The notes under the pieces were generated by a model. The model was not told the DNA's origin, made no database searches, and worked only from the letters and a program-made list of their open reading frames with translations. Shown here piece by piece: positions 5,201 to 44,664 of a stretch of 64,000 nucleotides of DNA; the stretch's first letter is position 1, and each line of letters opens with the position of its first letter. The position numbers and the translations under genes were made by a program. The stretch lies in the IMG/VR virus record IMGVR_UViG_3300017613_001944, positions 1-64,000 of that record. The stretch is one strand, 5' to 3'. This DNA comes from a virus.

Positions 5201-5318
5201 AAAGAAACCAGCTACTTGTCCAACGTGCGCGGGAAATAAAGAGATCTATGTGAACGGGAAGTGGGAGAAATGCAAAGAGTGCAAGGGAATAGGATTTATC
5301 CTGGTAGACGATAAGTAG
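5193..5318 (+). CDS. 41-aa zinc-finger protein (DnaJ-type CxxCxG repeats)
   Basis: MGRKKPATCPTCAG...KCKECKGIG; GAGGAG RBS; overlaps both neighbours; absent from ORF track. Confidence 0.65.
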   Translation: MGRKKPATCPTCAGNKEIYVNGKWEKCKECKGIGFILVDDK

Positions 5319-6166: not shown

Positions 6167-6774
6167 TAGTCGTGGATATGTGGGAGAGGCACTGGTGCAG
6201 AACCGCTGCTGCCAGAATGACGCTGTTGGCAAACAAGATGCACAATGCCCTTCTCACTGCCAGAGATTTCAACATGCCCATAATATTTGCCGGTGTAGAG
6301 GATGATCCTGACGCTTTCCTTCTCCCGGAAAAGAAAAAAGCGCCGATTAAGCCAGTCCCCGAGATCCATGTCCATGTAACCAGTGTACCCTATGTCATAT
6401 GCGAGTGTTCCGGTTCTGTATGTGAGCTTGGCGGGTCCAATAAAGAATTGAACAAGAACATGGTGACAGCGCCGGGGGATTATCAAGTCCATGACATTGA
6501 CCACCTTTATGGACTCTGCCAGCAGAGAAATATCTCCAAGCTATACTACATGGGAGCTGCTGCCAATATGTGTATTCTCCACAAGAGCTATGGAATGATA
6601 ATGGCGCATTACTGTCTTGGGCTAAAGTGTGTACTCGTCAGGGATCTAGCCATTCCATGGTTGCCAGACTACAAGGATAACAGGATCACAGGGGAGGCCC
6701 AGGTGATCCGCGACATTGAGAAGTACCTTGGGCAAACAGTTAACAGGCGCGAGATGATAGATGGCCTCTCTTAA
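6154..6774 (+). CDS. Isochorismatase-like cysteine hydrolase
   Basis: IVVVDMW and GAAANMCI motifs, VLVRDL. Confidence 0.7.
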   Translation: MEAIVVVDMWERHWCRTAAARMTLLANKMHNALLTARDFNMPIIFAGVEDDPDAFLLPEKKKAPIKPVPEIHVHVTSVPYVICECSGSVCELGGSNKELNKNMVTAPGDYQVHDIDHLYGLCQQRNISKLYYMGAAANMCILHKSYGMIMAHYCLGLKCVLVRDLAIPWLPDYKDNRITGEAQVIRDIEKYLGQTVNRREMIDGLS

Positions 6775-20450: not shown

Positions 20451-23400
20451 ATGGGACTTCTAACAGGAACAAGACGCGGATTAATAGGCGGAACAAGAAT
20501 AAGACCCTTCGACTTCGACCTGGATGCCACCACCTTCACCGCAGGGATGGCAAAGCGTACTGCGCCAGGCCCCTTCACCGCCGCCCCGATTGTGCAGGGG
20601 ACTTGGGCATCTGAGGTGACGACCAGGGACCAGCTTACCGGTCCCGTTGCAACAGCTGTCCATGATCTTTTTGAGGACACTGGCGACGCCTATCAAGGCA
20701 CTTTTGTTTTTTGGGTAACGCCAGAGTGGGACGGTGATGATGGAAAAGAGCACCGGTTAGTTGGGTTAGGCAATCATGCCTACGTTTTCAAGAGTACTGG
20801 TGGCTACCTTGTCTTTATGTTCAACGATGATGGAGCTTGGTCTAGTACGAGCGTTGATATTTCTGGCTGGTCGGCAGGTGCTACTTATAATGTGGTGGCC
20901 AGATGGGATGTCAAGAACACGCTAGATGGGACTAATTATGCCTGCATTTCCATCAATGATGTTCATTCTTTTGGATACACAACAGCAATAACTCCAGCCG
21001 ACATGGATAGGGTGCTGGTTGGGGATTACTCAAACAACAAGCCACCCAATGCCATCATCGAAGGACTCACCATCTACCGCCGCCCCCTCTTCGACGGCAC
21101 TTACGGCGTGGACGCCAACAGCGGAGTGGATGAGATCAACGCCATCTACGCGGCGGGTGCTGGCGCAGACCCGTGCTTGATAACGGGTTCGTGGGATGCG
21201 GTGTTCTGTCTGCCCACTGACAGCGCGGTAGGCGCGTTGGCGACGGGAACGGGTGAGGCGTGGAGCCACCCGCACAGTTCGGCGGTACTGAACCACTGGA
21301 TAGCGGAGGATGGCTATTACGGTGGTGGGCAGTGGGCGCTTATCGGTAACGCATCCAATACAGGGGTCAACTGCGGAAGCGCGGCGGCTTTGGATGATTT
21401 ACCACTGGCTGACTTTACCGTGGAAGGTTGGTTCCGCTGTGATGGGGGTGGAAGTGGTCACGACGGGGCGCTTGTATGGAAAAGCGGTGGATGGGACACT
21501 GACGGATTTTATCTTAATATCTACAATGGATATATCTCTGTAAGAATCAATTTTAACAATACTGATGTCGTGATGAACACTACCCCGACCTACAACGACA
21601 GTGCTTGGCATCACTGGGCGCTAGACTGGGATCAGGGAACTCTCACTGCCACACTATACGTGGATGGTAAAGAGGAGGCCACCGGCACGGCTGTCGGTGC
21701 GTATCAATCAGATGCAGCCGCAGAGTTCAGGATTGGAGTAGAGGGTGATTGGGGCAATCCGTTCAATGGCGCTATGGGTTGGGTGCGTCTTTCTGATGTT
21801 AGGCGCTACACAGCCGATTTCTTACCTTCCCGCGCATTTCCTGGTGCTGACGGTAACACTGTTGAGGCGTGGAATATAAACGACGGAACCGGCGCAACAG
21901 TGGTTGCACAAGTCACATCGCCGGGGAACGACGGAACCGCTGCCAATCCCGAGTGGGAGCAACAGTGGTGGCCCACCGGCACGCCGGTGATCGCGCCGTG
22001 CTTGAACTTGACAGCAGATTGGGCAAATGTGAATGGTGGATCAGGGGCCAATATTGACGATATGCCAACAGGTGATTTTACGGCAGAGCTTTACTTTTGC
22101 TATACAGATGCTGTTGCCTGGAATGTTATTGCTCAGAAGAAAACGGGGGGACTGGGCTGGTCCCTTAGTTTTGGCAGCAGTAATAAAACGCTCTTTACTA
22201 CTTTTGAATTTAATACAACAGATGCGGCTTCAGAAACAGTGGCTAATACAGTCCAACCTGGTAGATGGTATCACATCGCAGTCACTTTTGATGGCGGCAC
22301 AACCGATACGCCTATAATCTATGTGAACGGAATAAACAGATCGTCTTATTCGACTGCTGGTGTTGGTGTGTACCAAGCTGATGCTGCACAGAACTTTCTT
22401 GCCAGTAATGCAGCGACTAGAAATTTTAGATATGGCTGGCTTCGCCTCTCTGATTCAATTCGATACACTGATACCTTTGTTCCCAACAGCAGGGCCAACC
22501 CGCCAGGAAATGACGCCAATGCACAATTGCTTTGGAATATGGACGACGGAGAAGGCACAACCGTTACAGATACAAGTGGAAACGCTTATCACGGCTCTAT
22601 GTCGGCGGCAACTTCCGAGGGCTGGCTCAACACCCCCGACATGCCCACAGTCGCACCCGGCGCACGCGAATACCAGTGGGGCTACGCCATCGGCAGCGAC
22701 GGCGCTAACGACGGGGTGATCCAGAACTTGGCAGGACTGAGCGCGGGTGATGATTTCGTGGCTCGCATCCCCATTCGGTATGAGGATGTGAACGCGCAGC
22801 CGAGCATCCTTGTGTACGACGAGATTGGCGCGGCTAATATCACCAACTTCCTTGGACCCAAGCTCACAGGCGTTCACAGCGGTGGGAACAACAGCGCAAC
22901 TCTCATCGTCGCGACAGGCGCTTTCCCTCAGAGCCTAATAGGAGCTGCACTATACAACATCACCGATGGATCAAGCACTACCATCACCGCTGTGTCAGGA
23001 GACATGACGACGATCACAGGTGTGTTGTCTGGCGGCACCGACGACGATTGGGACACGAACGATGTGTTTATGATCGTCCCTGATCCGACGTGGGTGTGGT
23101 GCGAGACGTTCACCTGGGAGCTTCCGGCAGGCTGTACGGAGATGAGCGTGCATCTGCGTAACGCGGCGGGGTTGGGCGTGCTGTACTGGAACCAGGCGGA
23201 GGTTCAGGAGAATCTTGTCACTAATCCGTCAATGGAAGATCAGCGGTTGTGGGACATTGATCTTGAAACAGCAGACTTTTCCCAGTTCGACGCCACCACG
23301 GATGTGGACGGAGATATGACAGTGGGAGGCGCTGGCGCATTAGCCGGTTCTTCTAACGGCATCTCGTTCCTTGTTGATGATGCTAACGTCATGTATGCTG

Positions 23401-24782
23401 ACAAGAACCAGACTAACCCAGCGTCTGACGAGTTTAGGCTCCGCTTTTTTGTTGACCCTAACGGGTATACGCAAAACGACACTCAGGAAACAAGGTTGGC
23501 GCAGTGGCTGGATACCGGGGCTGGACTTTACACATGCATTATCGCTCTTAGGGATGATGCAGGAGCGCCGTCCTTCAAGATGCACTATTGCGATGACGCC
23601 GGTTACGGAGGCGGTGACGTTTCGGCAGAAATCACGGATGATCCACACTATGTAGAGTTCCACGTTGTTAGAGCGACAGGCGCTGTCGCCGCTGATGGGA
23701 CGGTACAGTGGTGGATTGATGGAGTGGACCAGGGGACAGTCACAGGTATAGACAACTGGGACCTGTTCGCAAACATGGACGTAGTTCGTGTGGGGGCAGA
23801 AGCAGTTGGGACTGGCGGATCAGGTACGATCTTTATTGACGAGATCACGGCTAACGACACAGGAGAAGAAATTGGACCTACGTACATTCCGATGGGGTGG
23901 AGTAATTCAGGTCTTGGTGCAGGGGATTCGGTTCAAGATAATGCAGAGCCGCATTCTGACTCGTCTTGCGTGGAATTTGTTACCGCACCGAACGCTTCTG
24001 CACTTTATTACAGCGTTAGTTTTGCTCCGGCTCCGGCGTTCGTTGGCATAGGTGGGTGGGCGCGTGAAACCGCAGGCAATATTATGTTGCGCGATGCTAG
24101 TCAACGAGCGATTCAAAACACACTCAGCACTAGAGCAGAGCTTGAAGCCTCTGGCGATGTGTGGCAACACCTTACTGGTGTTGTGAGACAAGATAGTGGC
24201 GGTGGCTGGTTTGCTTTGCGTAGTCATGAAGCCAGCTCCAGTGGTCGTTTTGATGACGTTTATGGTTTCCGTCTCGACGACGTATCCCTCACCGTCACCC
24301 CCGCGTCGGAGGCGAACAGCCTGGAAAGCGGCGGGATTCGGGTGGATGGAACGGATGACTTAGCTCAGCCCCTTTTAGGAATGACGCCAACGCGATTCCG
24401 CATTCGCTGGCGTTGTATTCCAAGGCACGGCGCAGGCGATTTTGAAAAGTTCGGCGGTGATGTATGGATGTATGCTTGGCAGGGTGTGGGCGGCGAATAT
24501 CTCTATGTGGATTGTGTGTCTGACACAACCATTAGGCTCGGTTTTGACGATGGCGGGGGTTTTCACGGCGCAAACTGGGACGCAACGGGAGTTATTGCAG
24601 CCGATACGGAATACCTGTTTGAGATTAGAACTGTTCCTACTCGAATGCAGCTTCTTGTTGATGGTGTTGTAAGGTCTACAATAAATACACCGATAAACTT
24701 TGGTGACTTTCCCGCCAATATCCATTGGGGTGTGGATGCTTGGTCGCTGGGTCAAATTGACGCCGTATTCCTTGAGCCATAG
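20451..24782 (+). CDS. Large multi-LamG (lectin-like) virion protein, 1443 aa
   Basis: Repeated FTVEGW/WHHWA/LYVDG/FNGAMGWVRLSD and FTAELY/WYHIAVT/IYVNG/WLRLSD units. Confidence 0.75.
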   Translation: MGLLTGTRRGLIGGTRIRPFDFDLDATTFTAGMAKRTAPGPFTAAPIVQGTWASEVTTRDQLTGPVATAVHDLFEDTGDAYQGTFVFWVTPEWDGDDGKEHRLVGLGNHAYVFKSTGGYLVFMFNDDGAWSSTSVDISGWSAGATYNVVARWDVKNTLDGTNYACISINDVHSFGYTTAITPADMDRVLVGDYSNNKPPNAIIEGLTIYRRPLFDGTYGVDANSGVDEINAIYAAGAGADPCLITGSWDAVFCLPTDSAVGALATGTGEAWSHPHSSAVLNHWIAEDGYYGGGQWALIGNASNTGVNCGSAAALDDLPLADFTVEGWFRCDGGGSGHDGALVWKSGGWDTDGFYLNIYNGYISVRINFNNTDVVMNTTPTYNDSAWHHWALDWDQGTLTATLYVDGKEEATGTAVGAYQSDAAAEFRIGVEGDWGNPFNGAMGWVRLSDVRRYTADFLPSRAFPGADGNTVEAWNINDGTGATVVAQVTSPGNDGTAANPEWEQQWWPTGTPVIAPCLNLTADWANVNGGSGANIDDMPTGDFTAELYFCYTDAVAWNVIAQKKTGGLGWSLSFGSSNKTLFTTFEFNTTDAASETVANTVQPGRWYHIAVTFDGGTTDTPIIYVNGINRSSYSTAGVGVYQADAAQNFLASNAATRNFRYGWLRLSDSIRYTDTFVPNSRANPPGNDANAQLLWNMDDGEGTTVTDTSGNAYHGSMSAATSEGWLNTPDMPTVAPGAREYQWGYAIGSDGANDGVIQNLAGLSAGDDFVARIPIRYEDVNAQPSILVYDEIGAANITNFLGPKLTGVHSGGNNSATLIVATGAFPQSLIGAALYNITDGSSTTITAVSGDMTTITGVLSGGTDDDWDTNDVFMIVPDPTWVWCETFTWELPAGCTEMSVHLRNAAGLGVLYWNQAEVQENLVTNPSMEDQRLWDIDLETADFSQFDATTDVDGDMTVGGAGALAGSSNGISFLVDDANVMYADKNQTNPASDEFRLRFFVDPNGYTQNDTQETRLAQWLDTGAGLYTCIIALRDDAGAPSFKMHYCDDAGYGGGDVSAEITDDPHYVEFHVVRATGAVAADGTVQWWIDGVDQGTVTGIDNWDLFANMDVVRVGAEAVGTGGSGTIFIDEITANDTGEEIGPTYIPMGWSNSGLGAGDSVQDNAEPHSDSSCVEFVTAPNASALYYSVSFAPAPAFVGIGGWARETAGNIMLRDASQRAIQNTLSTRAELEASGDVWQHLTGVVRQDSGGGWFALRSHEASSSGRFDDVYGFRLDDVSLTVTPASEANSLESGGIRVDGTDDLAQPLLGMTPTRFRIRWRCIPRHGAGDFEKFGGDVWMYAWQGVGGEYLYVDCVSDTTIRLGFDDGGGFHGANWDATGVIAADTEYLFEIRTVPTRMQLLVDGVVRSTINTPINFGDFPANIHWGVDAWSLGQIDAVFLEP

Positions 24783-31379: not shown

Positions 31380-32567
31380 ATGGCTGGGTTACAAATGCCA
31401 AATGAGACCAGGTTTGGCTTGGGCATTCAACAGGGAGGTGGAGGCCAAGGTGTCTCTGACTACTTGAAGATGGCCCTGGGCTATGAGCATGTGGTCTCGA
31501 ACAACGACAACTTTTCATATTTCCCTCTAACCGACGTTGGTATCTCCCCTGTTAAAACTATGGGAACTCTTCCACCGGAGATTGGTGGACGAGCCCTGGC
31601 GACAGGAGCTTATGCAACCGGCACTTGGGCTGCTGGCCCAGTGACAATGATCCCACGCTTGGACAATCGGCTGGGGTGGTTGCTATTGGCTGGAATGGGG
31701 GATGTCAGCACAGTTGCGGATACGAAAGCTGAGAATCTCGCCATCCTTGGCGGGGTACACGGCGCTGATGCTGGTATCAACAGCCACATCTTCCAGTTCA
31801 ACATTGACGATCAGTACTTCGTCCCGTGGCTCACGCTACGTCGTTTGCTTCCGCATTCGACCACGGCGCTGCGCTTGGGCGAGACGTTCCAAGATGGAAA
31901 GATGGCTACCTTCACGCTCACGGCAACCGCCGGAGCGCCCTTGCAAGTAGACGTTGACTTCCTGGCTAGATTGAAGCAGAGTAACTACATCTTTGACTTT
32001 GATCCAAGCTGGGGTACGTTCGTCAACGATGACTTTGACAAGTTCGGCGTTACGAGTTGTGATGGTCACTTTAACGTGGAAGACGTGGCATTCGATGTCA
32101 CTGCGGTTACGATCACGGTAGGTAACATCTTGTTGCCTCCAACCCAATCAATCATCATAGGAACCACACATCCTGTTGACTTCCCGAATCTCAACAGGAC
32201 GATGACGGTGACGGCTTCCTTCCTGGTGAGCACTTGGGACTTCTATGTCAGCACTTTCGCTGGGTCTGCGGTTACGGCTACAGATTCCAATGTTGAGTGT
32301 GCGGTTTACAAGGCAGACATAGATGTGATGTTGGCGAGTCAAGTTAACATCACCGGATCTGAACCGTATCGTATTCGGATACTGTCCAACCCGAACGAGG
32401 ATAATGCGGCTTGGACTGTTCAACCCGTTAGGATCATGCCTAACAGACCAGTGGTTGTTCAGGCTAACTGCACCGTCCTGGCGTTGGAGGGATCAAGTTG
32501 GGAGAACCATCCGGTTTTCATCGTTCTTCAAAACGACAAAGCCGACTACAACCTTCCAACACCATAG
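31380..32567 (+). CDS. Putative tail tube (major tail) protein
   Basis: Position before chaperone/TMP; beta-rich; AGGAGG RBS. Confidence 0.65.
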   Translation: MAGLQMPNETRFGLGIQQGGGGQGVSDYLKMALGYEHVVSNNDNFSYFPLTDVGISPVKTMGTLPPEIGGRALATGAYATGTWAAGPVTMIPRLDNRLGWLLLAGMGDVSTVADTKAENLAILGGVHGADAGINSHIFQFNIDDQYFVPWLTLRRLLPHSTTALRLGETFQDGKMATFTLTATAGAPLQVDVDFLARLKQSNYIFDFDPSWGTFVNDDFDKFGVTSCDGHFNVEDVAFDVTAVTITVGNILLPPTQSIIIGTTHPVDFPNLNRTMTVTASFLVSTWDFYVSTFAGSAVTATDSNVECAVYKADIDVMLASQVNITGSEPYRIRILSNPNEDNAAWTVQPVRIMPNRPVVVQANCTVLALEGSSWENHPVFIVLQNDKADYNLPTP

Positions 32568-32890: not shown

Positions 32891-33376
32891 ATGGCTATCA
32901 AAGTCGCGCCTATCTTCTCGGAGCCGCTGTATCTCGGTGATCTGAGCGAAGAAGTGGCTAAGATGGAGAAGGATTGTGACCAAAACGACAGAGCATGGAT
33001 AAAAGCACGGCAAGCGACAGAATCTGATGAGATGGAGATCAGTTCACTGTACTCTAAATCAAAGACTGTGTGGACTGGTGAGGCTACGGAACAGGTCCAA
33101 GAAATCAACCCCAGGGAACGGCAGGCCATGGAGATCTACCTGTGTATGGTAGACGCCGGTAACATTGACGATGAAGATGGCCCACTGTTCACCTTTGTAG
33201 AAAATGGACCTTACGCCAAAGTGGACGGAGGCTTCCAGATATTCAAGGAAGCATACGGAAGACTTCCATCCGAGGCCACATTAGCTATGTTGCGTGCCGT
33301 GTATACTGTTAACCCCGGCTGGGGTTGGTGGTTGAGCCAAGAGAAATCGGAGGGGGAAGCGAAGACGGGGGAGTAA
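32891..33376 (+). CDS. Tail assembly chaperone (lambda G-like)
   Basis: Between tail tube and TMP; ends in slippery sequence. Confidence 0.65.
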   Translation: MAIKVAPIFSEPLYLGDLSEEVAKMEKDCDQNDRAWIKARQATESDEMEISSLYSKSKTVWTGEATEQVQEINPRERQAMEIYLCMVDAGNIDDEDGPLFTFVENGPYAKVDGGFQIFKEAYGRLPSEATLAMLRAVYTVNPGWGWWLSQEKSEGEAKTGE

Positions 33377-33717
33377 ACCCCCTTCTACAGCATCTCGATG
33401 TACTGGAGAACGCAGTTCTTGAGTGGTTAGAGAGGAGCTTCTATGAGACGGCTGACCACGAGCTCCAGAAAGCTCTACGTAAACAAGCGCTGCTCCCAGT
33501 AAATATGCAAGCCGAAATGCCGGAGGCTTACCGCATCTGGCGTACCTGTCAAAGACATAGTGAGTTGTTCTGGCCTGGTGGTATAGCCAATCAACCGGCA
33601 ACCCTTATGTTAGAGATGGAGGCTTGCGAGAGAGTTTCAAACCAGTTCCAGGATCAAATCAAGCGAATGTACGGCATTATCGAGGATAAAGGCAGTGGCG
33701 CTTCGCCCATCGGATAA
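33325..33717 (+). CDS. Frameshift extension of tail chaperone (lambda T-like)
   Basis: -1 frame relative to 32891-33376, no clear own RBS; WPGGIANQP motif. Confidence 0.65.
   Translation: MVVEPREIGGGSEDGGVNPLLQHLDVLENAVLEWLERSFYETADHELQKALRKQALLPVNMQAEMPEAYRIWRTCQRHSELFWPGGIANQPATLMLEMEACERVSNQFQDQIKRMYGIIEDKGSGASPIG
33352..33382 (+). promoter_or_regulatory. Programmed -1 frameshift signal
   Basis: In-frame G GGG GAA at 33352-33358, then GGGGG-AGTAAA-CCCCC hairpin 8 nt downstream; -1 frame open to 33717. Confidence 0.7.
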
Positions 33718-36700
33718 CCCAGGGAGAGCTCTGCAAGACAGGGCAGAACAACGCGCTCAACAGCTTATGCGTGAGCGGCGTGGTTGGTCTTATTCTGCTG
33801 CACTCAACTTTGCTATGAATGAGTTGACGTATCAGCAGCAGCATGTCGTCCTGGATGTTGAGACAACGGGTGTAAAGAAGGGCGAGAACGAGCTCATCCA
33901 GATTGGTGCCAGGAAGTTTGGTCCTGGTGGAAAACCCGGAGAGACCTATCAAACCTTTGTTGATCCAGGTGGTCCAATTCCCCAGGACATCACTAATCTA
34001 ACCGGCATCAGCACCCAGATGGTAATGGGTGCTCCCTCTCCACAACAGGCAGTCTCAGAACTGTCTCAGTTTGTAGGCAATCTCCCCGTCGTTGGTCACA
34101 ATGTTGGCTTTGACATTGGCTTCCTGGGGATGCACGGCTTTGAAGCATCAACAGCAGCAGACACTCTAGCTGCATCCAGAGCCGCTATGCCACAACGTCG
34201 CAGCCACTCTCTTGCCAACATCGCCGCAGAGCAGGGGTGGGGAATACAACAGCACGAGGCCATGGCTGATGTTGGCATGACCTCCTTACTTCATAGTCAG
34301 CTAGCAACAATGTATCAAGGAGGTGTTCCTCCACCGAGTGGACCACCTCCACCTGCAAACATCTCCCGCTCCATGGGACCCACGCAAAGGGCGTTGCCCC
34401 CAGCAGTGCACGGCGCTGCTATGCAGTTGGGGATAGACGCACAGCAGGCTTCTGAGATCGTCAGCTCGGCTGGTGGTGGATCTATCCGCCAGCAGATAGA
34501 AGCCGTACAACAGTTTGTATACAACAAGATAGGCAAACCCGCCCCCTTTGGCGGTAGTGCAGATCCCATGCAGGCTCTCTCCCCCACACAGTGGGTGCAA
34601 ACCACAGAGAGTGGGCGTGCGATGACACGCACCATGACACCCTTGCCATCATCCTTTGATCCAGCTAAAGCGCAGGAGACATGGGACCCAGGGCAGATAT
34701 CCTATCCTGGGAACAAGATGCAACTTGATCTTGAGCGCAGTCTTGGTGCTTCGATATGGCCTGTTCGAGGTGGGGCGATTCAGACGGGACTAGAAAAGCC
34801 TGAACAATTCCCCAAGCGAATTAAGCAAGCAATCTCGAACTATCAGCAGATTTATCTCAAGGACATGGAGATAGAGGAGGCTCCGTGGTTGACAGGGCCA
34901 ACCTCTCAAGCTCCCGAGAAGGGGCAGACTCTTCGCACTGCTGTGGTGTTTGGCGGCTTTGCTCCCGAGGGCATGTCCTACATTAAGCAGGATCTGGGCT
35001 CCGCCGGGGACTTCAAGTATCACAAGCTCCCTATTCCAGCAGGGGTGGTGCCAGAGGATATAGCTCCTGTCGGAACTGCATTTACTAGATCTCAGGGGGC
35101 ACAGCTATTCAAGGGGCACACCGGCATCAAGTTTGGTGACTGGGAAGAGCAGCATGTTCAGGACATTAGATTTGAGCCTGGAGCCATCAACCAGCCAGGC
35201 GCTCTACACGTCAGAATGGGAAGGGGCATTCCTCTAACACGCGGTATCGGCTACTCGATGCACTCTGGTAAGGAGTTGCTGGTGGGTGCCGATGTCGAGA
35301 AGATGACTGGCAGAAGCGACATCCAGGTGGTGAAAGCTGGTCCCAGGGATGTGCTTGGTCTGGCATTCCAGGCATACAGCTCCATGGCTCCAGCCGAATA
35401 CGAGAGGGTAACTGGCAAGCCGCGCCCTGCCACTTGGCAACAAGCTGCCGCAGATGAAGAGTCTATGGCAGCTTTTGATCGGATGGCTAGTGACAACGCC
35501 ACGATGCTCCAGTTCCCCGACCAAATTATCTCTAAAGCCAACCTTGAGGCTTTTAAAGAGGGCAATAGGATAGTTCCCGGCACATTAGAAGAGCTCGGCG
35601 GCGAGAGATACCGTGCCACCCTGGAGTATCCAGCGGTGGTAATGGATCTCTTTACCCAGTTCACCCGTGGGGCCTATGAGCATGGTCAACCATTTGTTGG
35701 GGAGGGTACTCTCCGGCGAATAAGAGACGCCAACCCTCAACTCTACAACCAGATGATGGGTGAGGGAAAGCAGCAGCGTGAGTGGAGACAGCAAAACGTC
35801 CAGGCATACACTGCCAGCAGAGGAATACCGGGATTAAGGCAAGCTCCAGACCAATACACTATGGCAAGGGATCTTCCCTGGACTAACATTACACAAGACG
35901 CTACTCGCAGAGCCATGAAGATCAGCGGTGTTGATCGCCCCGAGGATATCCCTTACGGCGCAGAACAAGCAGCACTGTTACAACGAATCCCTCTAACTCA
36001 CGAGGGTCGAGCCACAGGAGCTCTCGCCTTCGAGAGCCGTGGCAAGGATTATTTCTTCCCCCATCCCAGGCATGTCCCCGCCGTACCAGGGACCTTGGGC
36101 TATGAAGAACGAAGCGCCTATAGGCACCGCTACGCAAATCTACTCCAGGAACAAATGAGGTATCAAGAGACTGGTGAGGAGGAGCCGTATCGCTCTGCCC
36201 TTGCTGGTACAATGCTAGCTAGTCACCGTCTTGTAAGCTCCGGCGAATTTCTAAAGCGCACGCTGGGCGTAGAGCCACGAAGTCTATATGGTGGCATGGG
36301 TGCTGCATCTTTCGCCAATCTTCCCGAAGAGCTGTATATGCCAACAGAGGCTGCTGCAAGAGCCAGTGGTATCAAGGTTGGCACTCCCGAATATGAAAGA
36401 TTCCAGCGCAATTTCGAGTCAGGCGGTTATCAGTTTGCTGCCTCTGTATTCCGGGAGCCTACCACTGATACGGCGGGAGTGCTGGTGAAGGGACTGGTCA
36501 AGTGGATAGGCACACATCCAAACGAAACTCTTCGGGACGCACGTATACCAGTCTTGTCTGCGGAGATGGGCCAGACACTAAGAGGCGACTTTGACAAGGA
36601 CGCCTACACCATTGCCAGGGAGTGGGGCATTGATCTAGCAGATGCCCAAACTCTCAAGATACAAATGCGCGACTTCAATCTTTCAAATGCCCAGGCTGAC

Positions 36701-39700
36701 AAGGCAGGACAGCGAGACAAGCAATTCAAGGAGATTGGAAAGTTTGGCACTATTAGATCCATGCTGGATAGAATAGGCCAGAGAACAGCAATACCTCTTA
36801 GAGATGCTATTGGGCAGATGAGCGAGAGGTCCAGTGTCGGCAGACAGATGGGTTATGGCTACAATATTCAGCAAGAGCTAGAAATGTCGGCGGTAGATCC
36901 AGAATCCAAGGCAGCAGCAGAGCTATTGGGCTCCAATATGTATATGCAGGGCCAGGACTTTGAGAAGTGGAGCAAGGAGCTTGAAAGTCTGGTAGTGCAT
37001 CGCAGTGCCAACCTTGCAACAGGCGGTGCATATAATATCATTACTGGTGAGCCGTCACGCATCCCATTCGGCAGGTCAGAGACGGGAATGATGCTCTCTG
37101 CCATTAGGATGGGATCAAATCTCCCAGGCTTGAGCTCCAGAGAGAAGGCAGCAATGATGACCCCTGCTGGTAATGAGGGGCTTCGTGCAGCAGTGGAGGG
37201 AGCTCTTGAGTCTGGTGACATTGACTCAATAGCACACTTATTGGAGGGTGCTCTTCCCGGCGGGGCACAGGAATGGGGAGAGAATACATTATTAGGGCGA
37301 CAAGTGTTAGGTCGCGCAGCAGATTTAGGACAAAGGAAAGGTGCCAAAGGAATCCGTGAATCACTAGCAGAAATCGGCAGATCATTAAGGTCTGTCGGTG
37401 CAGTAAGACGTTCTTATCCATTTAAGGGACGTGTGGAGGCGCTTAGAGAAAGAATGCGTCTAGGCGGAGAGCCTCCATCACCCGTTATGCAGGCTCTCTT
37501 GCCTGGCAGCGAAGCGCCTCTGGATGTCTCAGGTATGACACCAGAGGAGCAAGATGCTATGGCTATAAAAGCAGCCTCAGCCTCCTCTGGTAGGGGGCAA
37601 GGGCAAACACCAGAAGAAACAAGACGATTCGCTGATCGACAAATGGAGTGGCAAGCTGAGATAGCAAGAGGTACCGCTGACCCAGCAAACTATCCCGATC
37701 TATTCCCAACGAAGGAAGAGTACGCGAGATACGCGGCTCAAAGAGCCGGGGCACCCCCACGCCCACCCGATCCGGCACGTTCTGCCGGTTCAGGCGGTAT
37801 GGGAGGTGGAAGATTACCGCCTGTCACCACCGCTACCCCAGATCCGTCAGATCCACGTCAGTCTGGTGAAGGTGATCCCAAGAAGTGGGTTGTCAACCTG
37901 AACTATGGTGCTGTGAAGATAGGAGACTTTAACCGAGCAATTGAGACAATGACCAGCCGACTTGGTGATTGGTCTGAAGAAATGGACCCGATTGTCACCG
38001 GCGGTAAGCAGTTCACAAAAGCCCAGCAGCAGATGACTGAGAAGTTAATCTCTGCACGCAGAACTCTCGAAAGAGCAGATAGAGGCGAGGGGGATTTTAC
38101 GTCTGCACAGATACAAGCTGCCCAGCAAGCTCTTGCCACGCCTGGTATGGGTGTTCTTGGGCAAGCAGAAGAGCAGATCACCAATCGCTGGTGGGGCCAG
38201 AGAATGGATCAGGGCGCAAGAGGGCGCGTAGGTCGCTTCTATGAGCGCTTTGGTTCACGAGGAATGGGAGACGCCTCACCAACAGAGCGCATGGAGCGCG
38301 GATTCAGAAGTGTATTCTCTGGATGGGAGCTCATGCGCTTACAGCGTATGTGGGGTCTGACTGGTGGACGAGCGTTTGGCGCTATGCCAGTTGCCGCAGA
38401 AGCACAGCAAGGTGCTATGCAAGCCGCCATGGTTGGACAGCCTATGGGCCAGTTTGGGATGGGCGATATCACTGCTGGCTTACTTGAGACGGGTGCAAGA
38501 CAACAACAGTTCCAGGTTCAGATGGGCACTGCTACTAACCAGGCTTGGGGCTGGATGCCTAGAGCTATGGCAAACACAGGACTGGGCACAGCGGCTGGCA
38601 TTGGATTACCTGCACTTGGCATGGGTGCTGCTGCTGGATGGGGAGCTGGGGTACTTGGACTTGGCGCTCTTTCTACTCCCCTTGGTTTAGGGGTTGCAGC
38701 AGGAGCGGGTATATATGGCGGGATCAACTATCTAAGAAATAGGCCAGAAGAGGACATAGATGTTGCGGCAGCGGAGCAACGAAAGCGAGATCTGACGCGA
38801 CAAATAGCGACACCTCAAGGGCTGGAGCGCTTCAGGCCACCGGGATGGATGGGTGGTGCCTTTGGCCCAAGCGTTGAAGGCTACTCTGAAGAACAAGCAG
38901 AGAGAGGCGAAACGATCCTTAGCGGAGAGCTAACTGGTCTTTCTGTTCCACAACGGATGAAGGCCATTCAGGAAGCATATCAATATGCTCCGCAATGGAT
39001 GGAGCCAACGGCTGCACAGGGCCTTGCTCAACAGTGGATGCGCTATGATCCCGAAGCAACTAACATCAGAGAAATCTACGAGGACCCACGCTTCGAGGCA
39101 ATGGCTGCACGCGGCACTGATGTTGAAACCTACGCTAAAATGGCAGAGGGTTTTGGTATGCGCCCAAGCCAAGCCTTTGATATTTACAGTATCATGGCTG
39201 GCGTGTCAGAGCAAGAGTTTGGTCCAGTTTCTGAGACTGCTCAATCGTGGATGGGACTTGGTAGAGCTGCTGGCATGAAGCCAGAAGACATCTTAAGTCG
39301 CTCCAAGCCAAGAACACAGACTCCTGGGGATACCCGGTGGGGTGATGTATATAATCCTGAGCGACTGGCGGGACCAAGATTGGAGCGATTGTCAGGCGAT
39401 CCGATGGTACAGCAAAGAGCGCAAGCTATCGAAGGTATGATGATACAGCGGCGCACAGCAGGGATGGAGATCCCGTTTGAACCCCCCACCACTGAAGCGG
39501 CGGTGATGGATATCTACCAAGGTGGGCAGATGCAGCTAGGCACTGCTGGATTGGGGCTTGCCAATCAGTTTATGGGAATGGGAGCTACTCCGCTAACTGC
39601 CGGGGCTGGTGCTGGTGCCGCAGAGCGTTACGGTATGATGGGGGTACGAGGTGTCAGTGGCTTTATGGGCGGGGACAGGAACATAATGGCTATGCTTGGT

Positions 39701-40942
39701 CAGGCCAATGTTCAAGGTCCATTCTCCCAGGTGAATGTCGGTGGTGGAATGCAATATAACGCAGGTCCACTGCGACAGGGCATCGAGGACGCCCTGGCAC
39801 AAGTCATGTCCCCAGAGGGAGCACAGAGTATAAGGGGAATGATGGGGGATATTCGCCCCTTAGTGGAACCAGAGACTGGCATGCAGATGGGTACCACTCG
39901 CATGTACGAGGGTTTCGCTGATGAATACCAGTTGCCTAGAGGCACAGATCAAGGAGCGTTTGATAAATATACTCAAATGCTGGTTACTGGTGGTAGACGT
40001 GACGTTGAGCGGGAAAAGGCCAGTCTCCAAGGTGACTTCCGAACATTCCAGCAAGATCAGCAAAGAACACAGCTAGAGTTACGCGGTGTATCTCAGTTCG
40101 GTGGGACCTTTGAGTCGCCCTACGGTGGTACATTAGATACCAAGGGCACCTTTGAGCTCACGCGGGAGATGAGAAATCTCTCCAGGACCTTCCAGGACTA
40201 TAACCAAGAGTACAATCAGGAGTCTCGACAACTGGGCTACAACCAGTTCCAAGAGAATTGGCAAGTACGAGCTCAGAGAATGCCTATCCAATTCCAGAGG
40301 CAGCGTGAAGACCTGGCTTTCCAGGGCAACCAGGCGGCTATGGGCTTCGGTTGGCAGATGGAAGACATCCAGGAGAACCTGCGCTTTGCCACTGGCAGGG
40401 ACAGGCGACGGCTATTACGCCAGCAAGAGCGTGCAGCCATCAGCTTTGGGATGGGACAGGGCCAGCGAGAAACACAGGCTGGACGAATAGACCAGAATGA
40501 GCGCTGGGCTGCTGAAGATCTTGAGCGACAGAAGCGACATTTTGAAGAGCGCTTCCGCTTACAGGATGATTACCAGGAAAGGTACCGTCAGTACACAGAA
40601 GAGCGTAGGGCAATAGAGGATCAGCTCCAAGAGATCCAGGAATTCAATGCCCAGTACAACTTAGAGGCTTCGACAGAGCAGCTAGACAAGTCCATCGCTC
40701 TCAACGAGCAGCTAAACGGGATACAAGAAGCATACACGGCAATGAACCAGGATCTCGAGAAGCAGGTTGGACTACAGCAACAGATCGTCAAGAACATCGA
40801 GTACTTGATAGCTCAATTTGCCGATGATGGTAGAGCAACCAACGCATTCAACGGTTTCATTTCACACATCGAGAACTCCTTCTCTCGGGAATCCGCCGAG
40901 ATAGGGCTGATGATCGACAGAATTTACGGCAACGATAGCTAG
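33695..40942 (+). CDS. Tape-measure protein fused to N-terminal DEDDh exonuclease and putative two-barrel RNA polymerase (2415 aa)
   Basis: LDVETTG/HNVGFD/HEAMAD; GQTLRTAVVFGGFAPEG, MHSGK, FREP, GDFDKD; Gly/Ala hydrophobic segment and long Q/E/R coiled coil; TMP locus. Confidence 0.8.
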   Translation: MALRPSDNPGRALQDRAEQRAQQLMRERRGWSYSAALNFAMNELTYQQQHVVLDVETTGVKKGENELIQIGARKFGPGGKPGETYQTFVDPGGPIPQDITNLTGISTQMVMGAPSPQQAVSELSQFVGNLPVVGHNVGFDIGFLGMHGFEASTAADTLAASRAAMPQRRSHSLANIAAEQGWGIQQHEAMADVGMTSLLHSQLATMYQGGVPPPSGPPPPANISRSMGPTQRALPPAVHGAAMQLGIDAQQASEIVSSAGGGSIRQQIEAVQQFVYNKIGKPAPFGGSADPMQALSPTQWVQTTESGRAMTRTMTPLPSSFDPAKAQETWDPGQISYPGNKMQLDLERSLGASIWPVRGGAIQTGLEKPEQFPKRIKQAISNYQQIYLKDMEIEEAPWLTGPTSQAPEKGQTLRTAVVFGGFAPEGMSYIKQDLGSAGDFKYHKLPIPAGVVPEDIAPVGTAFTRSQGAQLFKGHTGIKFGDWEEQHVQDIRFEPGAINQPGALHVRMGRGIPLTRGIGYSMHSGKELLVGADVEKMTGRSDIQVVKAGPRDVLGLAFQAYSSMAPAEYERVTGKPRPATWQQAAADEESMAAFDRMASDNATMLQFPDQIISKANLEAFKEGNRIVPGTLEELGGERYRATLEYPAVVMDLFTQFTRGAYEHGQPFVGEGTLRRIRDANPQLYNQMMGEGKQQREWRQQNVQAYTASRGIPGLRQAPDQYTMARDLPWTNITQDATRRAMKISGVDRPEDIPYGAEQAALLQRIPLTHEGRATGALAFESRGKDYFFPHPRHVPAVPGTLGYEERSAYRHRYANLLQEQMRYQETGEEEPYRSALAGTMLASHRLVSSGEFLKRTLGVEPRSLYGGMGAASFANLPEELYMPTEAAARASGIKVGTPEYERFQRNFESGGYQFAASVFREPTTDTAGVLVKGLVKWIGTHPNETLRDARIPVLSAEMGQTLRGDFDKDAYTIAREWGIDLADAQTLKIQMRDFNLSNAQADKAGQRDKQFKEIGKFGTIRSMLDRIGQRTAIPLRDAIGQMSERSSVGRQMGYGYNIQQELEMSAVDPESKAAAELLGSNMYMQGQDFEKWSKELESLVVHRSANLATGGAYNIITGEPSRIPFGRSETGMMLSAIRMGSNLPGLSSREKAAMMTPAGNEGLRAAVEGALESGDIDSIAHLLEGALPGGAQEWGENTLLGRQVLGRAADLGQRKGAKGIRESLAEIGRSLRSVGAVRRSYPFKGRVEALRERMRLGGEPPSPVMQALLPGSEAPLDVSGMTPEEQDAMAIKAASASSGRGQGQTPEETRRFADRQMEWQAEIARGTADPANYPDLFPTKEEYARYAAQRAGAPPRPPDPARSAGSGGMGGGRLPPVTTATPDPSDPRQSGEGDPKKWVVNLNYGAVKIGDFNRAIETMTSRLGDWSEEMDPIVTGGKQFTKAQQQMTEKLISARRTLERADRGEGDFTSAQIQAAQQALATPGMGVLGQAEEQITNRWWGQRMDQGARGRVGRFYERFGSRGMGDASPTERMERGFRSVFSGWELMRLQRMWGLTGGRAFGAMPVAAEAQQGAMQAAMVGQPMGQFGMGDITAGLLETGARQQQFQVQMGTATNQAWGWMPRAMANTGLGTAAGIGLPALGMGAAAGWGAGVLGLGALSTPLGLGVAAGAGIYGGINYLRNRPEEDIDVAAAEQRKRDLTRQIATPQGLERFRPPGWMGGAFGPSVEGYSEEQAERGETILSGELTGLSVPQRMKAIQEAYQYAPQWMEPTAAQGLAQQWMRYDPEATNIREIYEDPRFEAMAARGTDVETYAKMAEGFGMRPSQAFDIYSIMAGVSEQEFGPVSETAQSWMGLGRAAGMKPEDILSRSKPRTQTPGDTRWGDVYNPERLAGPRLERLSGDPMVQQRAQAIEGMMIQRRTAGMEIPFEPPTTEAAVMDIYQGGQMQLGTAGLGLANQFMGMGATPLTAGAGAGAAERYGMMGVRGVSGFMGGDRNIMAMLGQANVQGPFSQVNVGGGMQYNAGPLRQGIEDALAQVMSPEGAQSIRGMMGDIRPLVEPETGMQMGTTRMYEGFADEYQLPRGTDQGAFDKYTQMLVTGGRRDVEREKASLQGDFRTFQQDQQRTQLELRGVSQFGGTFESPYGGTLDTKGTFELTREMRNLSRTFQDYNQEYNQESRQLGYNQFQENWQVRAQRMPIQFQRQREDLAFQGNQAAMGFGWQMEDIQENLRFATGRDRRRLLRQQERAAISFGMGQGQRETQAGRIDQNERWAAEDLERQKRHFEERFRLQDDYQERYRQYTEERRAIEDQLQEIQEFNAQYNLEASTEQLDKSIALNEQLNGIQEAYTAMNQDLEKQVGLQQQIVKNIEYLIAQFADDGRATNAFNGFISHIENSFSRESAEIGLMIDRIYGNDS

Positions 40943-40951: not shown

Positions 40952-41377
40952 ATGGCGGCAAGTGTGCATAGCAGTATCAGGTTAGACTGTGATCTTACCG
41001 GAGAGTTACCAACAAACGAGTACGGCGTGACATTTGATGGCCTATCTCAGATGTATGAACCTGCCATTGTGGTGGAGCGCTCTCTCACCGGGACCATGCA
41101 CGTACACCGCATCCTCACCGGCAGTACCCCAATGGTATTCGACGGGTTTGAGTATGTTCTACTGCTCACCAGGGCAGAGAAAACTCAGCTTGCAGAGGAC
41201 CTGGGCAAACTGGTGTACTTTATGCCTCACTATCGAGACGAGAGTGATGTAGACGCCTATCGCAGTGTGATGTTATTCAGGGGTATGCAGGATGTTCGGA
41301 ATCTCGATCCTCACCTGGAGTACTATCACGCCACAATCATCTTAGAAGAGGCAACAGGACGGGTAGCTGATTCATGA
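40952..41377 (+). CDS. Putative distal tail protein
   Basis: Small gene directly after TMP; GAGGTG RBS. Confidence 0.5.
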   Translation: MAASVHSSIRLDCDLTGELPTNEYGVTFDGLSQMYEPAIVVERSLTGTMHVHRILTGSTPMVFDGFEYVLLLTRAEKTQLAEDLGKLVYFMPHYRDESDVDAYRSVMLFRGMQDVRNLDPHLEYYHATIILEEATGRVADS

Positions 41378-44300
41378 TAACGAAGAGTGGAGACCTCACT
41401 TGGTGGCTGCAAGCCGCCTACGATAACTTTGTCAGTGATACGGGAGATCCCGTGTTCCAGTTCTTGTTGGAGGCATACAGCCTCTCCATCTCATCTGTCT
41501 CAGAGGTGAGTGGTAGTGGCTACGCGCCGGTAAGTGAGGTTGACGCTATTGTCTGCGGTGATACCATCATCAAGGCTTGGGTGGTAGATCCGTGGGCACA
41601 GGGGGGTGGCCTTCACATCGCAACCCTGGCTGATGAAGATGCTGCCGATCAAACCTGGACAGAACAAATACTCATTGATGTAAACCTTGACGAGACGGTT
41701 CCCCCCTCTCTGGCAGTAGATGGCAACACCGCCAGGGTGTTTTACTACGATGGTACCAGCATCGAGTATTTCGAGAGTGCTGATAAGGGGGCGACTTGGG
41801 GGGCCTCCCAATCAGTACAGGCTATCAACAACTGTACCTTTATCGCGGCGACTACCCTCACGAGGGTGCATTATATGTATGAGACGGCGGAGCATAACCT
41901 CCTACTGGGGGTACTCAACTATGCCGCCGCTGTATGGACGGCTACGGATAGTGATATCTACTGGCCCTTCAGACCCGGCTCATTCGACGCTATCACCGGC
42001 AACCAACTGGATGATGGAGCAGCCTCCGATAATGACATAATAGCCTTCACCACAGACTTTCCGCCGTTAATAGCAATGAGGGTTGACGGTACGGAGACAG
42101 TGAGGTTCTATGAAAGAGTGCAGGGGATAGCCGTTATACGTTATCAGAACGGTAGATGGAGTGACCACTACGAGTTTGATGTAGTGGACAACCAGCCGAC
42201 TATCCCGGCAAGAACAAATCTGCGTCTATCCAAGTACGGTGAGTTCATGTTCATGACCTACTTGCGTGTCGATGGCACAGAGAACTACCCTCACAACTCT
42301 CTGGCTCTCTCCCGCTCTAGGACAGGGCTGGACTGGGAGATGCCCTACCTTATGCCGTCCAGCGTTGTGGGTACGGCGGCTGTTTTACTGAAGCGTGGGA
42401 TATATGCGTATCTGGTGGACTCCACCGGGAAAAAGATGCGCTCCTACTCCTGCGGCTACGTGGGAGATCCCTACATAATCCATGATCTCTCTGACTACTG
42501 CCTCTCCGTGGACACCCGCATGGGGGACCTGAAGGAAGTCTCTATCACTTTGGGTAACCCCAACGGCGTTCATAATGACATATTCGATGATGAGATAATG
42601 TGGCAGATGCGGGTCAAGCAGGGCTACCATATCGACGCATCAGACTATATCATAGATACTGCCGTAGCCGACCTGTATGAGATCTCCCGTGATCGTAATA
42701 TCCCCACGGATCACCTTGTCCTTACTGGTAGGTGTGAATTGGGTAGAACAACTTCTCTGCGTGCAGATACGGTGCAGGAGAGGGAGAGCCACCAGATAGG
42801 TGGGGATGACTTTGAGAGCATGGACGGTACCAAGTGGTCTGGATTGAGGCACACCGCTGCCTTCGTGGGCTACTATGAGGCGGAGAACAACATCCTGTAT
42901 CTTAAACCCACCGCCAACCAGGGTGTTGCCTTTACCACGCTGGTCTCTGAGGTGTGGAATGGAGCTGTTCAGTCGGGTATTTACGTGGCTGGTACCGATG
43001 CCCAGGACTATGCCGGTGTGATCTTCAGGGGCTATGACCTCTATAATTTCTGGTTTGCCGCTTATAGGGCAGATACCGATAAGATCATCCTTGCCGAGAG
43101 GGTGGATAATGTAGACACGGTGATTGCCTCTGTCTCTAACATGGGCTGGTCGTTCGGGACCTGGTATTATATCAAGGTGGTGTTCCGTTACAACTACATC
43201 AAAGTCTACAGTTCTACCGATGGTAAGACGTGGACAGAGAGGATTGCCTTCCAGATAGATGGTACCCCCTCTACTGCTGACTGGACCACCTTTGGCGGCA
43301 TCTCTGTGATGTCAGGAAGTATGGGATACTGCGGCTATGGCTACTCGGAGGAAGAAACCTACTATCCTGACCCACCTGACCCACCTCCTCCGCCTGTTGT
43401 GGACCCCGTGTGGCCCAGTATTGTCATGGTTGCCACTCAGGGAGGGACTGGGAAAGTGGGCGGAATCTATCTAACGGAGGATTTTACTGAACCCGGTGGT
43501 ACAATGCCTACCTGGACGGCAGCTAATACCGGCTTGCCTGATGGTGCCGGTGAGCCGGATATACGATTACTGGGAGTTGATACATTCCATAGAGCCTATC
43601 GGCAATACTGCTTGACTGAGGATGGTCGAGAGCTGTATGTACGCACCACCTCTGATCTCGGGGGTGATGGTTCCTGGAGTTTGATCCTCAACAGAAGCAT
43701 GATTATAGACCAGTTCACCGGGGATTTCGCCCTGGCACAGATTCTCTATTTCGACACAGACCCACAGAATGATGGGCACATCTACGTCCTGTTCCAGCAC
43801 ACTACCGGAGCCGCCAGGGTACCCTTTGTAGCCAAGTCTACCGACTATGGGGCTACATGGGAGAATATGGGACAGGTGAAGTACGATGAAGCAGGCAGTT
43901 TATTCTACCGTATCTGCTCCATTCACGCTTATGGCGGCAAGGTGTTCGTCCTAGTTAACAGATCCTACACTCCGTGGGGTGTGTGCATATACTACAGTGA
44001 TGATGGAGCCGCCAACTGGGTGGATAGGAGCGAGAGGGTCGGCAATTACCGGGGTACCTACGACACTCTTGGCAATTTCAATCACACCGAACCCGATATA
44101 CTGCACATGCAAGCATACGAGGTGACACATCCCATTGAGTTTACCCAATACGACCTATGGTTATGGCAGAATGTGGGTAGTGGGGTTGACACATTTGAGT
44201 GTGGTCATGATGCTATTACTGGGCTGAGGTTGGGGGTCAACAGACCTGACTTTATCTGCTATGATCGTAGTGTTGCGGCTAATGCCAAGATGATTAAACT

Positions 44301-44664
44301 TGGTGATCCTACTACTGTCCCGGCGAGAATGGCAAAATACTACATAACCACCTTGCGTTTCAAGACTCTGACCAATGGTATAGCCGATTTCTCTAACTGG
44401 AATGTCATGTGCTACGCCTCTGAGGGTGGTACCTCCTGGGTGAATGACGCCGATGACAGTATGCTGATCTATGGGGCGAATAACTGTGACCACAGCCACG
44501 CCTCAACGACTCGCCATCACATCCTGGCGGCGGATACCACCGTAGATCACACCACCACCTCTGGAAAAGCAGGGTCAAACGTGACAAATGGACCAGCTTA
44601 TACCGACTCGATCCCATACGCTGCTGGCGGAGTTAGTTGGCGTGGAATCCAGGTGCTAAAATGA
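41374..44664 (+). CDS. Tail tip protein with Asp-box (BNR) propeller regions
   Basis: SADKGATW, STDGKTW, STDYGATW, SDDGAANW; Pro-rich linker PDPPDPPPPP. Confidence 0.65.
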   Translation: MITKSGDLTWWLQAAYDNFVSDTGDPVFQFLLEAYSLSISSVSEVSGSGYAPVSEVDAIVCGDTIIKAWVVDPWAQGGGLHIATLADEDAADQTWTEQILIDVNLDETVPPSLAVDGNTARVFYYDGTSIEYFESADKGATWGASQSVQAINNCTFIAATTLTRVHYMYETAEHNLLLGVLNYAAAVWTATDSDIYWPFRPGSFDAITGNQLDDGAASDNDIIAFTTDFPPLIAMRVDGTETVRFYERVQGIAVIRYQNGRWSDHYEFDVVDNQPTIPARTNLRLSKYGEFMFMTYLRVDGTENYPHNSLALSRSRTGLDWEMPYLMPSSVVGTAAVLLKRGIYAYLVDSTGKKMRSYSCGYVGDPYIIHDLSDYCLSVDTRMGDLKEVSITLGNPNGVHNDIFDDEIMWQMRVKQGYHIDASDYIIDTAVADLYEISRDRNIPTDHLVLTGRCELGRTTSLRADTVQERESHQIGGDDFESMDGTKWSGLRHTAAFVGYYEAENNILYLKPTANQGVAFTTLVSEVWNGAVQSGIYVAGTDAQDYAGVIFRGYDLYNFWFAAYRADTDKIILAERVDNVDTVIASVSNMGWSFGTWYYIKVVFRYNYIKVYSSTDGKTWTERIAFQIDGTPSTADWTTFGGISVMSGSMGYCGYGYSEEETYYPDPPDPPPPPVVDPVWPSIVMVATQGGTGKVGGIYLTEDFTEPGGTMPTWTAANTGLPDGAGEPDIRLLGVDTFHRAYRQYCLTEDGRELYVRTTSDLGGDGSWSLILNRSMIIDQFTGDFALAQILYFDTDPQNDGHIYVLFQHTTGAARVPFVAKSTDYGATWENMGQVKYDEAGSLFYRICSIHAYGGKVFVLVNRSYTPWGVCIYYSDDGAANWVDRSERVGNYRGTYDTLGNFNHTEPDILHMQAYEVTHPIEFTQYDLWLWQNVGSGVDTFECGHDAITGLRLGVNRPDFICYDRSVAANAKMIKLGDPTTVPARMAKYYITTLRFKTLTNGIADFSNWNVMCYASEGGTSWVNDADDSMLIYGANNCDHSHASTTRHHILAADTTVDHTTTSGKAGSNVTNGPAYTDSIPYAAGGVSWRGIQVLK

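Follow-up and report, generated by a model that had tools for sequence, protein, structure and literature searches.

A tail protein gene joining an intact exonuclease, a candidate two-barrel RNA polymerase and a tape measure

The giant tail gene and its neighbours

The window analyzed here is the first 64 kb (64,000 nucleotides) of an 82,211-bp IMG/VR virus record (IMGVR_UViG_3300017613_001944), which is rated 84% complete. Our subject is a giant open reading frame (ORF) at 33695-40942 on the plus strand, a single frame of 2415 codons with no internal stop and a GTG start downstream of a GAGGA box, whose product is identical to protein P0001 and can be divided into an amino-terminal exonuclease, a middle module resembling RNA polymerases (RNAPs) and a carboxy-terminal tape-measure part. 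A preliminary description had reported an ORF of this extent, split by Pro-rich linkers, together with a set of short motifs; the frame and both linkers are as described, each quoted motif lies at the residues claimed, and our analysis confirms that observation as a whole and supports its interpretation. The features of the gene are as follows, with residues of the protein (amino acids, aa) in parentheses.

33695-40942, plus strand: whole giant ORF, with exonuclease, RNAP-like module and tape-measure part (2415 aa)
33845-34282, plus strand: DEDDh (DnaQ/PolC-type) 3'-5' exonuclease domain (aa 51-196)
34295-34399, plus strand: Pro-rich linker 1 (aa 201-235)
34568-37594, plus strand: conserved RNAP-like module of ~1000 residues (aa 292-1300)
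34916-34984, plus strand: beta-like block 1, E..GQxLR...PEG.S.I (aa 408-430)
35003-35230, plus strand: flap/wall-like beta domain (aa 437-512)
35240-35272, plus strand: beta-like block 2, RG.G.S.H.GK (aa 516-526)
36281-36619, plus strand: beta'-like double-psi beta-barrel (DPBB), designated DPBB-A (aa 863-975)
36587-36601, plus strand: candidate catalytic loop DFDKD (D965, D967, K968, D969)
37745-37894, plus strand: Pro/Gly-rich linker 2, 22% Pro and 18% Gly (aa 1351-1400)
37895-40942, plus strand: tape-measure part proper (aa ~1401-2415)
38576-38725, plus strand: Gly/Ala-rich hydrophobic stretch (aa 1628-1677)
40172-40765, plus strand: conserved carboxy-terminal domain, FGWQMED...RFATGR... 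(aa 2160-2357)

The amino-terminal domain matches Pfam RNase_T (PF00929; E 5.8e-23, 82.7 bits against a gathering cut-off of 24), PHROG 192 (E 5.3e-34), the PolC-type models of NCBIfam (E 4.6e-30) and, in the PDB, the PolC exonuclease 2p1j_A (E 3.6e-13). The motifs VLDVETTG, GHNVGFD and HEAMAD lie at residues 52, 134 and 187, and all five residues of the DEDDh catalytic set are present (D54, E56, D140, H187 and D192), in agreement with the earlier claim of an intact enzyme. In the full domain match and the five catalytic residues it resembles other DnaQ/PolC-type DEDDh exonucleases (Pol III epsilon, PolC, and the DinG-fused and Cas2-fused forms), but here the domain forms the amino terminus of a tail protein and has no DNA polymerase attached. 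A tblastn search of 50,697 phage records with the giant protein matched 79 of them, each through the exonuclease; in the 25 records listed the matches cover query residues 19-208.

The genes on either side belong to a tail module:

31380-32567, plus strand: tail tube gene
32891-33717, plus strand: chaperone-like pair (32891-33376, then 33325-33717 in the -1 frame)
40952-44664, plus strand: two tail genes that follow, encoding 141 aa and 1096 aa

The tube gene matches Pfam Phage_tube_2 (E 9.1e-8), has homologues upstream of the giant ORF in the viral contigs L002, L130 and L134, and is separated from the giant ORF here by a 102-aa ORF and the two overlapping small ORFs of the chaperone-like pair. 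A frameshifting chaperone had been proposed at this place; the overlap with the -1 frame is there, but we saw in it no slippery heptamer of the canonical XXXYYYZ form, just a run of G at 33367-33371, and a -1 frameshift is plausible. In contig L130 the giant gene comes directly after a tube gene (49% identity) and a homologue of the chaperone-like pair (42% identity), and a weaker homologue of the pair is found in L135. In contig L002 the order is the same as in the window, namely tube, small ORF, giant ORF, 141 aa and ~1080 aa, with BLASTP E values for the flanking genes of 2e-22 (tube) and of 1e-13 and 3e-71 for the two downstream genes. Within a conserved tail module, the giant gene therefore takes the place of the tape measure, the slot to which it had been assigned at the outset, after the tube gene and chaperone-like pair and before further tail genes. 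Both this position and the identity of the exonuclease are close to certain. The 1096-aa downstream protein (41374-44664, plus strand), probably a tail hub or tip protein, is 31% identical to its L002 counterpart across 670 aa and has a BNR_2 (sialidase-like repeat) match that falls under the cut-off (E 1.3e-4).

The polymerase-like module

A HMMER pass over 1.84 billion representatives recovered five proteins that contain the middle module, including the query, and the four homologues score between E 4.9e-184 and 3.2e-66 (alignments A1 and A2). The homologues are P0002, which is 2434 aa long and 38% identical, P0003, a fragment of 818 aa, P0004, the 3184-aa product of the giant gene of L002, and P0005, with 2867 aa. 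Other searches added nothing to the family: homologue searches of protein collections returned the query itself, the query with P0004, or no protein; none of 344 pattern matches in metagenome contigs or 330 in genome contigs was a relative; viral contigs queried with the single protein gave none; and an ESM Atlas search with the module gave no usable match. P0005 has a DEDDh domain at its amino terminus (Pfam, E 1.5e-7) and P0002 and P0004 do not. Since the exonuclease is thus found in only two of the four close-family proteins with a complete amino terminus, we take it to be an optional, accessory cargo that may act on the 3' ends of nucleic acids at entry. In P0004 (L002:9383-19018), residues 1373-1423 hold a HELGH motif of the zincin type and match Peptidase_M78 weakly (E 0.0012); this HExxH insert separates the polymerase-like module from the tape-measure part and recalls the metallopeptidase domain of gp96, a protein of Thermus phage P23-45 to which we return below.

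The five proteins are only 28-40% identical overall, yet the motifs of the module are invariant in all of them, which makes these motifs more than chance resemblances. Of 1009 aligned columns 94 are invariant, and 35 of the 94 lie in aa 842-991. Block 1 keeps E408, Q411, G420, P424, E425, G426 and S428 in every member and falls in register with GQNMRVAF of Escherichia coli beta (hhalign E 0.066); its segment GQTLRTAVVFGGFAPEGMSYI at aa 410-430 (nt 34922) reads GQTLR..PEGMSYI. Block 2 contains GIGYSMHSGK at aa 517-526, with R516, G517 and K526 invariant, and is placed relative to the flap as GDKMAGRHGNKG is at 1063-1074 of E. coli beta. In the DPBB-A region S872, N875, P877, E878, E879, Y881, R920, P922, H941 and P942 are invariant; FREP lies at aa 919-922 and LSAEMGQTLRGDFDKD at aa 954-969, and within the latter G964-D965-x-D967-K968-D969 is the same in the five aligned proteins. 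Conservation of DxDxD and of Lys among homologues had been put forward earlier as a check, and in the alignments of the close family GDxDKD, RxP, PEG.S and K526 are each invariant in five of five.

AlphaFold models of two sizes were made, the larger covering 1009 residues from the five-sequence alignment. In a low-confidence model aa 841-1010 form a double-psi beta-barrel that aligns with the beta'/Rpb1 barrels of RNAPs over ~95-100 residues, the alignments stopping at the NADFDGD loop, and beta'/Rpb1 and beta/Rpb2 of DNA-dependent RNAPs lead the structural matches both in length and in number. A beta'-type barrel that carries a DxDxD metal loop, a feature of two-barrel RNAPs, is therefore present in the predicted structure. 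Upstream, aa 437-512 are modeled at a predicted local distance difference test score (pLDDT) of 72-81 and match the flap/wall of RNAP beta/Rpb2; this domain sits between the blocks at aa 410-430 and aa 516-526, just as the flap of E. coli beta (830-1057) sits between GQN (797) and GDK...HGNKG (1063-1074). Both double-psi barrels had been anticipated from the motifs. The beta'-like barrel is seen in the model, whereas the strands of the beta-like barrel stay below pLDDT 50, so that on the beta side there is the flap/wall match and the flanking blocks, which keep R516 and K526. Beyond the beta'-like barrel, aa ~1049-1231 are confident helices (pLDDT 61-91 per ten-residue block, mostly above 80), preceded by a 31-residue helix at aa 1035-1065 that is mostly below pLDDT 50; in this region, where two-barrel RNAPs have a bridge helix and trigger loop, there was no specific match to a bridge helix. 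The two barrel regions predicted as a two-chain complex scored 0.01 against a mark of 0.32, a result we count neither for nor against a polymerase.

Tape-measure proteins often carry wall-degrading domains, and the module might be no polymerase at all, the barrel being another kind of DPBB domain (RlpA-, MltA- or expansin-like) whose acidic loop binds metal or substrate. This we rejected as very improbable. No match to DPBB_1, 3D or any other muralytic Pfam family was found even at E 10; the alignments to other kinds of DPBB are shorter (~70-78 residues) than those to RNAPs, which moreover stop at the DxDxD loop; and the flap/wall, set between the beta-like motifs further upstream, is a second RNAP-specific element independent of the barrel. 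The conserved unit of ~1000 residues is also much bigger than a muralytic domain, and the barrel has an in-register profile match with gp96.

As described by Chaban et al. 2024 (PMC10770324), gp96 is an active, virion-borne, two-barrel RNAP fused to the tape measure of P23-45. Virions contain this RNAP within the full-length protein; the enzyme binds the pre-early genes and transcribes them, and its structure is flat and clamp-less, a shape proposed to let it pass through the tail. Relatives of gp96 occur in P74-26, G20c and TSP4, structures are available as PDB 8H2M and 8H2N, and gp96 with two relatives was used for a family profile. Against this profile the five-sequence DPBB-A profile scores E 0.0039, in register, and a DPBB-A profile extended with the distant relatives described below scores Prob 44-50% and E 1.6-2.3e-4 over 64-79 columns, again in register, pairing FREPTT with FRNPVMG and GDFDKD with VDFDGD; mismatched domain pairs give E 0.16-0.9. 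The structural match with the highest sequence identity (23%) is 8h2m_A. Both are tape-measure-slot proteins with a polymerase or polymerase-like module of ~800-1000 residues, in which DPBB-A carries a DxDxD loop and comes after DPBB-B, the latter a candidate barrel in the window protein. They differ in that the window protein has an invariant Lys in its loop (DFDKD, against DFDGD in gp96), has the additional amino-terminal DEDDh exonuclease and is half as long (2415 versus 5002 aa); unlike P23-45, the 82-kb record shows no second RNAP of the gp64 type, and it does not come from the Thermus phages.

The likeness to multisubunit RNAPs consists of the barrel aligned over ~95 residues to NADFDGD, the flap/wall between the two beta motifs, and GQxxR, H.xK, RxP and DxDxD blocks that are in register with those of beta and beta'. 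In contrast to these enzymes, the window module is a single chain, reaches no significant sequence or profile score against them, and most other beta and beta' domains are unrecognizable in it. In the extended profile ..SAEMGQTLRGDFDKDAYT aligns with ..HPLVCAFNADFDGDQMA of a 71-sequence bacterial beta' profile at E 0.018, a profile that gp96 itself matches with Prob 68.9% and E 4.5e-5, and single beta and beta' sequences of E. coli, compared with the whole module by hhalign, give no match. Foldseek searches with both models return nothing at E <= 0.001, though RNAP chains top the lists, and neither 6VR4 nor QDE-1 (2J7N) is among the structural matches listed, which does not argue against a relationship. 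PMC10770324 states that most two-barrel RNAP families have no significant sequence similarity outside the DxDxD region, and the pattern seen for the module is consistent with that statement.

The tape-measure part and distant relatives

Viral contigs were searched with the carboxy-terminal domain at aa 2160-2357 (A6), and the domain is common to 11 loci, L127 to L137, drawn from 70 pattern matches, with open frames of 1113 to 3217 aa. One of these loci, L131, is the L002 contig; L127, L128 and L129 apparently encode copies of a single protein (the first 1500 aa of L127 and L129 are 100% identical, and L128 has an equal ORF length and equal hidden Markov model (HMM) matches), and L132 and L133 gave identical results. 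The giant tape-measure-slot ORFs on these contigs (2307-3217 aa) have the carboxy-terminal domain in common with the window protein. No Pfam domain and no DEDDh exonuclease was found in any of the six distant giant ORFs scanned.

The module, too, reaches beyond the close family. With the HMMER filters off, and among 11 sequences, the A2 module HMM matches giant slot ORFs at E 1.2e-10 (L132/L133) and E 1.8e-8 (L130) over ~600 positions, and an extended HMM to which these were added matches L127-L129 (E 3.3e-6), with L135 reaching no better than E 0.035; the ORFs of L134, L136 and L137 match neither HMM, although the 2307-aa ORF of L136 has the carboxy-terminal domain. At the place aligned with DFDKD the loop reads DADGD in L130, DFDLD in L132/L133 and DKDDD in L127-L129, and perhaps DSDGD in L135. 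The three aspartates of the loop are thus kept in three distant subfamilies at less than 25% identity, as is the Pro of RxP.

The carboxy-terminal ~1000 residues are aligned by BLASTP with the corresponding parts of other giant slot proteins and with a 1445-aa protein of L134, which follows a tube gene and has both the carboxy-terminal domain and a hydrophobic stretch, but not the module. The existence of this shorter protein supports the view that the carboxy-terminal ~1000 residues are the tape measure proper and that the front of the giant protein is added cargo. The window gene is long, lies between tube and chaperone genes on one side and distal tail genes on the other, and encodes a hydrophobic segment. 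This segment, the Gly/Ala-rich stretch at aa 1628-1677, is long enough for a membrane hairpin; comparable stretches are found in the ORFs of L127-L129, L134, L135 and L137, and none by the same criterion in L130-L133 and L136. Further on, aa 2251-2340 are rich in Q, E, R and K and poor in Gly and Pro, so that both compositional traits attributed earlier to the carboxy-terminal part, the hydrophobic stretch and the Q/E/R-rich region, are present.

A predicted injected polymerase

Taken together, our analysis indicates that the protein is probably an exonuclease, a very diverged single-chain two-barrel RNAP and a tape measure joined in one chain, following a widespread gp96-like design, with activity and packaging as predictions. 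The phage, which is uncultivated, accordingly probably injects its own transcription enzyme in a way that has so far been demonstrated only for Thermus phage P23-45. A number of results weigh against this reading. The larger AlphaFold model is poor (pLDDT 55.0, predicted template modeling score (pTM) 0.31), with barrel cores below pLDDT 50, and so is the smaller one (pLDDT 57.9, pTM 0.46), in which a helix follows DFDKD, whereas the corresponding segment of beta' forms a strand. Outside the comparisons given above the module region (aa ~230-1350) is unrecognized: it has no match in Pfam (E 1 for the whole protein and E 10 for three fragments), PHROG or NCBIfam at E 1-10, and searches of the PDB by sequence and profile return only citrate synthase at E 1.6. 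The five-sequence DPBB-A profile does not match the bacterial beta' profile (E 0.17), and full-length hhalign of the module with gp96 gives Prob 0.2%, so that the homology to gp96, with which the preliminary description had proposed a comparison, is weak and appears in the barrel profiles and not in the full-length profile. The carboxy-terminal part matches no curated tape-measure family model (Pfam, PHROG and NCBIfam, E up to 1), so that synteny and composition are what assign it to the tape measures. Scanning every ORF in the 82 kb of the 84%-complete record for DxDxD revealed no second large, non-virion RNAP candidate, and Pfam PF00562 has no match in the phage's own genome. Nor is there a convincing repeated promoter-like motif in 32 intergenic regions, as judged by an exact k-mer count, which is not a proper motif search.

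The remaining points against the reading concern the active site, and most of them also bear on the possibility that the module is a catalytically dead descendant of a two-barrel RNAP, now just providing bulk or plugging the tail. The loop DFDKD has a Lys at the position of the Gly in DFDGD, which is unusual; the first beta-type Lys, already noted as atypical, has no conserved position; in L130, L132 and P0005 the retention of K526 is not clean; and the Arg of RxP is replaced by Gly in two distant subfamilies, L130 and L132. Nevertheless, we rejected a dead relic, and give it the faintest of chances, because the three aspartates are invariant in five of five close members and kept in the three distant subfamilies, and invariant residues cluster in the barrel. 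Kept aspartates and invariance clustered in the barrel are the pattern of a site under selection.

It is also conceivable, if improbable, that the module is a two-barrel polymerase of another specificity, either a DNA polymerase or primase resembling PolD or a QDE-1-like enzyme that copies RNA, with the DEDDh domain as its proofreading or 3'-trimming partner. The exonuclease is closest to the proofreading domains of PolC and epsilon, DFDKD departs from the canonical DFDGD, and archaeal PolD and QDE-1 also use the two-barrel fold, as noted in PMC10770324. Against such a specificity, DNA-dependent RNAPs give more and longer structural matches than any others, the sole significant profile link is to the RNAP of gp96, and the exonuclease is not obligatory, being absent from P0002, P0004 and the six distant giant ORFs scanned.

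For an injected RNAP, the following mechanism can be proposed by analogy with gp96; we infer RNA synthesis, packaging, ejection, its timing and the role of the exonuclease from the analysis above. The protein would be built into the tail as its ruler, inside the tail tube, and would leave through the tail at infection. Its carboxy-terminal ~1000 residues would be the tape measure proper, with a Gly/Ala hairpin at aa 1628-1677 that probably helps to form a channel across the membrane, and a conserved coiled carboxy-terminal domain. In front of it would lie the ~1000-residue polymerase, a beta-like barrel with a flap/wall insertion followed by a beta'-like barrel with the metal loop DFDKD, and at the extreme amino terminus, joined through Pro-rich linkers, the DnaQ/PolC-type exonuclease. 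Exonuclease and polymerase would thus reach the cytoplasm beside the first incoming DNA end, where the polymerase may transcribe the first phage genes without host RNAP.

More speculatively, the exonuclease and the polymerase may form one injected machine with a 'resect-and-transcribe' entry step, in its boldest form the first two-barrel polymerase with a covalent proofreading exonuclease. We regard this as doubtful. The DEDDh domain would trim a 3' end and so expose a single-stranded template or promoter, on which the clamp-poor two-barrel enzyme would then start, or would remove misincorporated or backtracked 3' nucleotides.

Large polymerases that are packaged and delivered with the genome are known from other phages, such as the two-barrel gp66 of crAss-like phage phi14:2 (PDB 6VR4) and the T7-like virion RNAP of N4, but to our knowledge neither is fused to a tape measure. 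Until now, a tape-measure-fused virion RNAP was known from one group of Thermus phages (published in 2024). In the literature we found no polymerase-tape measure fusion other than that of PMC10770324 and no exonuclease-tape measure fusion, in keeping with the earlier remark that the three-part combination was unfamiliar. The window locus and its relatives, four close proteins and giant slot proteins on six further viral contigs in three distant subfamilies, suggest that the RNAP-tape measure design is old and widespread among environmental tailed phages. The sequence family of the module is recognized by no current domain library, and such genes are consequently annotated as "tape measure" or "hypothetical". 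The amino terminus of the tape measure appears to be a cargo position, from which an intact nuclease can enter the cell with the DNA, and this raises the question of what a 3'-5' exonuclease does beside an injected polymerase. A compact (~1000-aa), very diverged two-barrel enzyme with a DFDKD loop may also be useful for studies of the minimal RNAP core.

Several other features of the record deserve mention. The 13-mer ACTGCCAGCAGAG or its complement is present in 10 exact copies and 4 copies with one mismatch in the 82 kb, mostly within coding sequence and mostly in one orientation relative to the local gene direction; copies in the window are at 18184, 26129, 35810, 49462, 52864, 54163 and 63169, that at 35810 inside the giant ORF. 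An exact 18-nt element, CCCCGCCGGAGGCGACAA, occurs three times on the plus strand, at positions 59575, 75929 and 78503 of the genome, the first of which is in the window, and every copy is intergenic within a block of minus-strand genes. Between the head and tail genes, a 1443-aa ORF (20451-24782, plus strand) contains Laminin_G_3/concanavalin-like lectin domains (E 1.6e-23) and may encode a capsid or neck fiber. Upstream of the structural genes, a sugar-modification cassette (2574-10306, plus strand) encodes a UDP-glucose/GDP-mannose dehydrogenase (E 5e-33) along with a double methyltransferase that combines an FkbM with a class I methyltransferase domain, among others.

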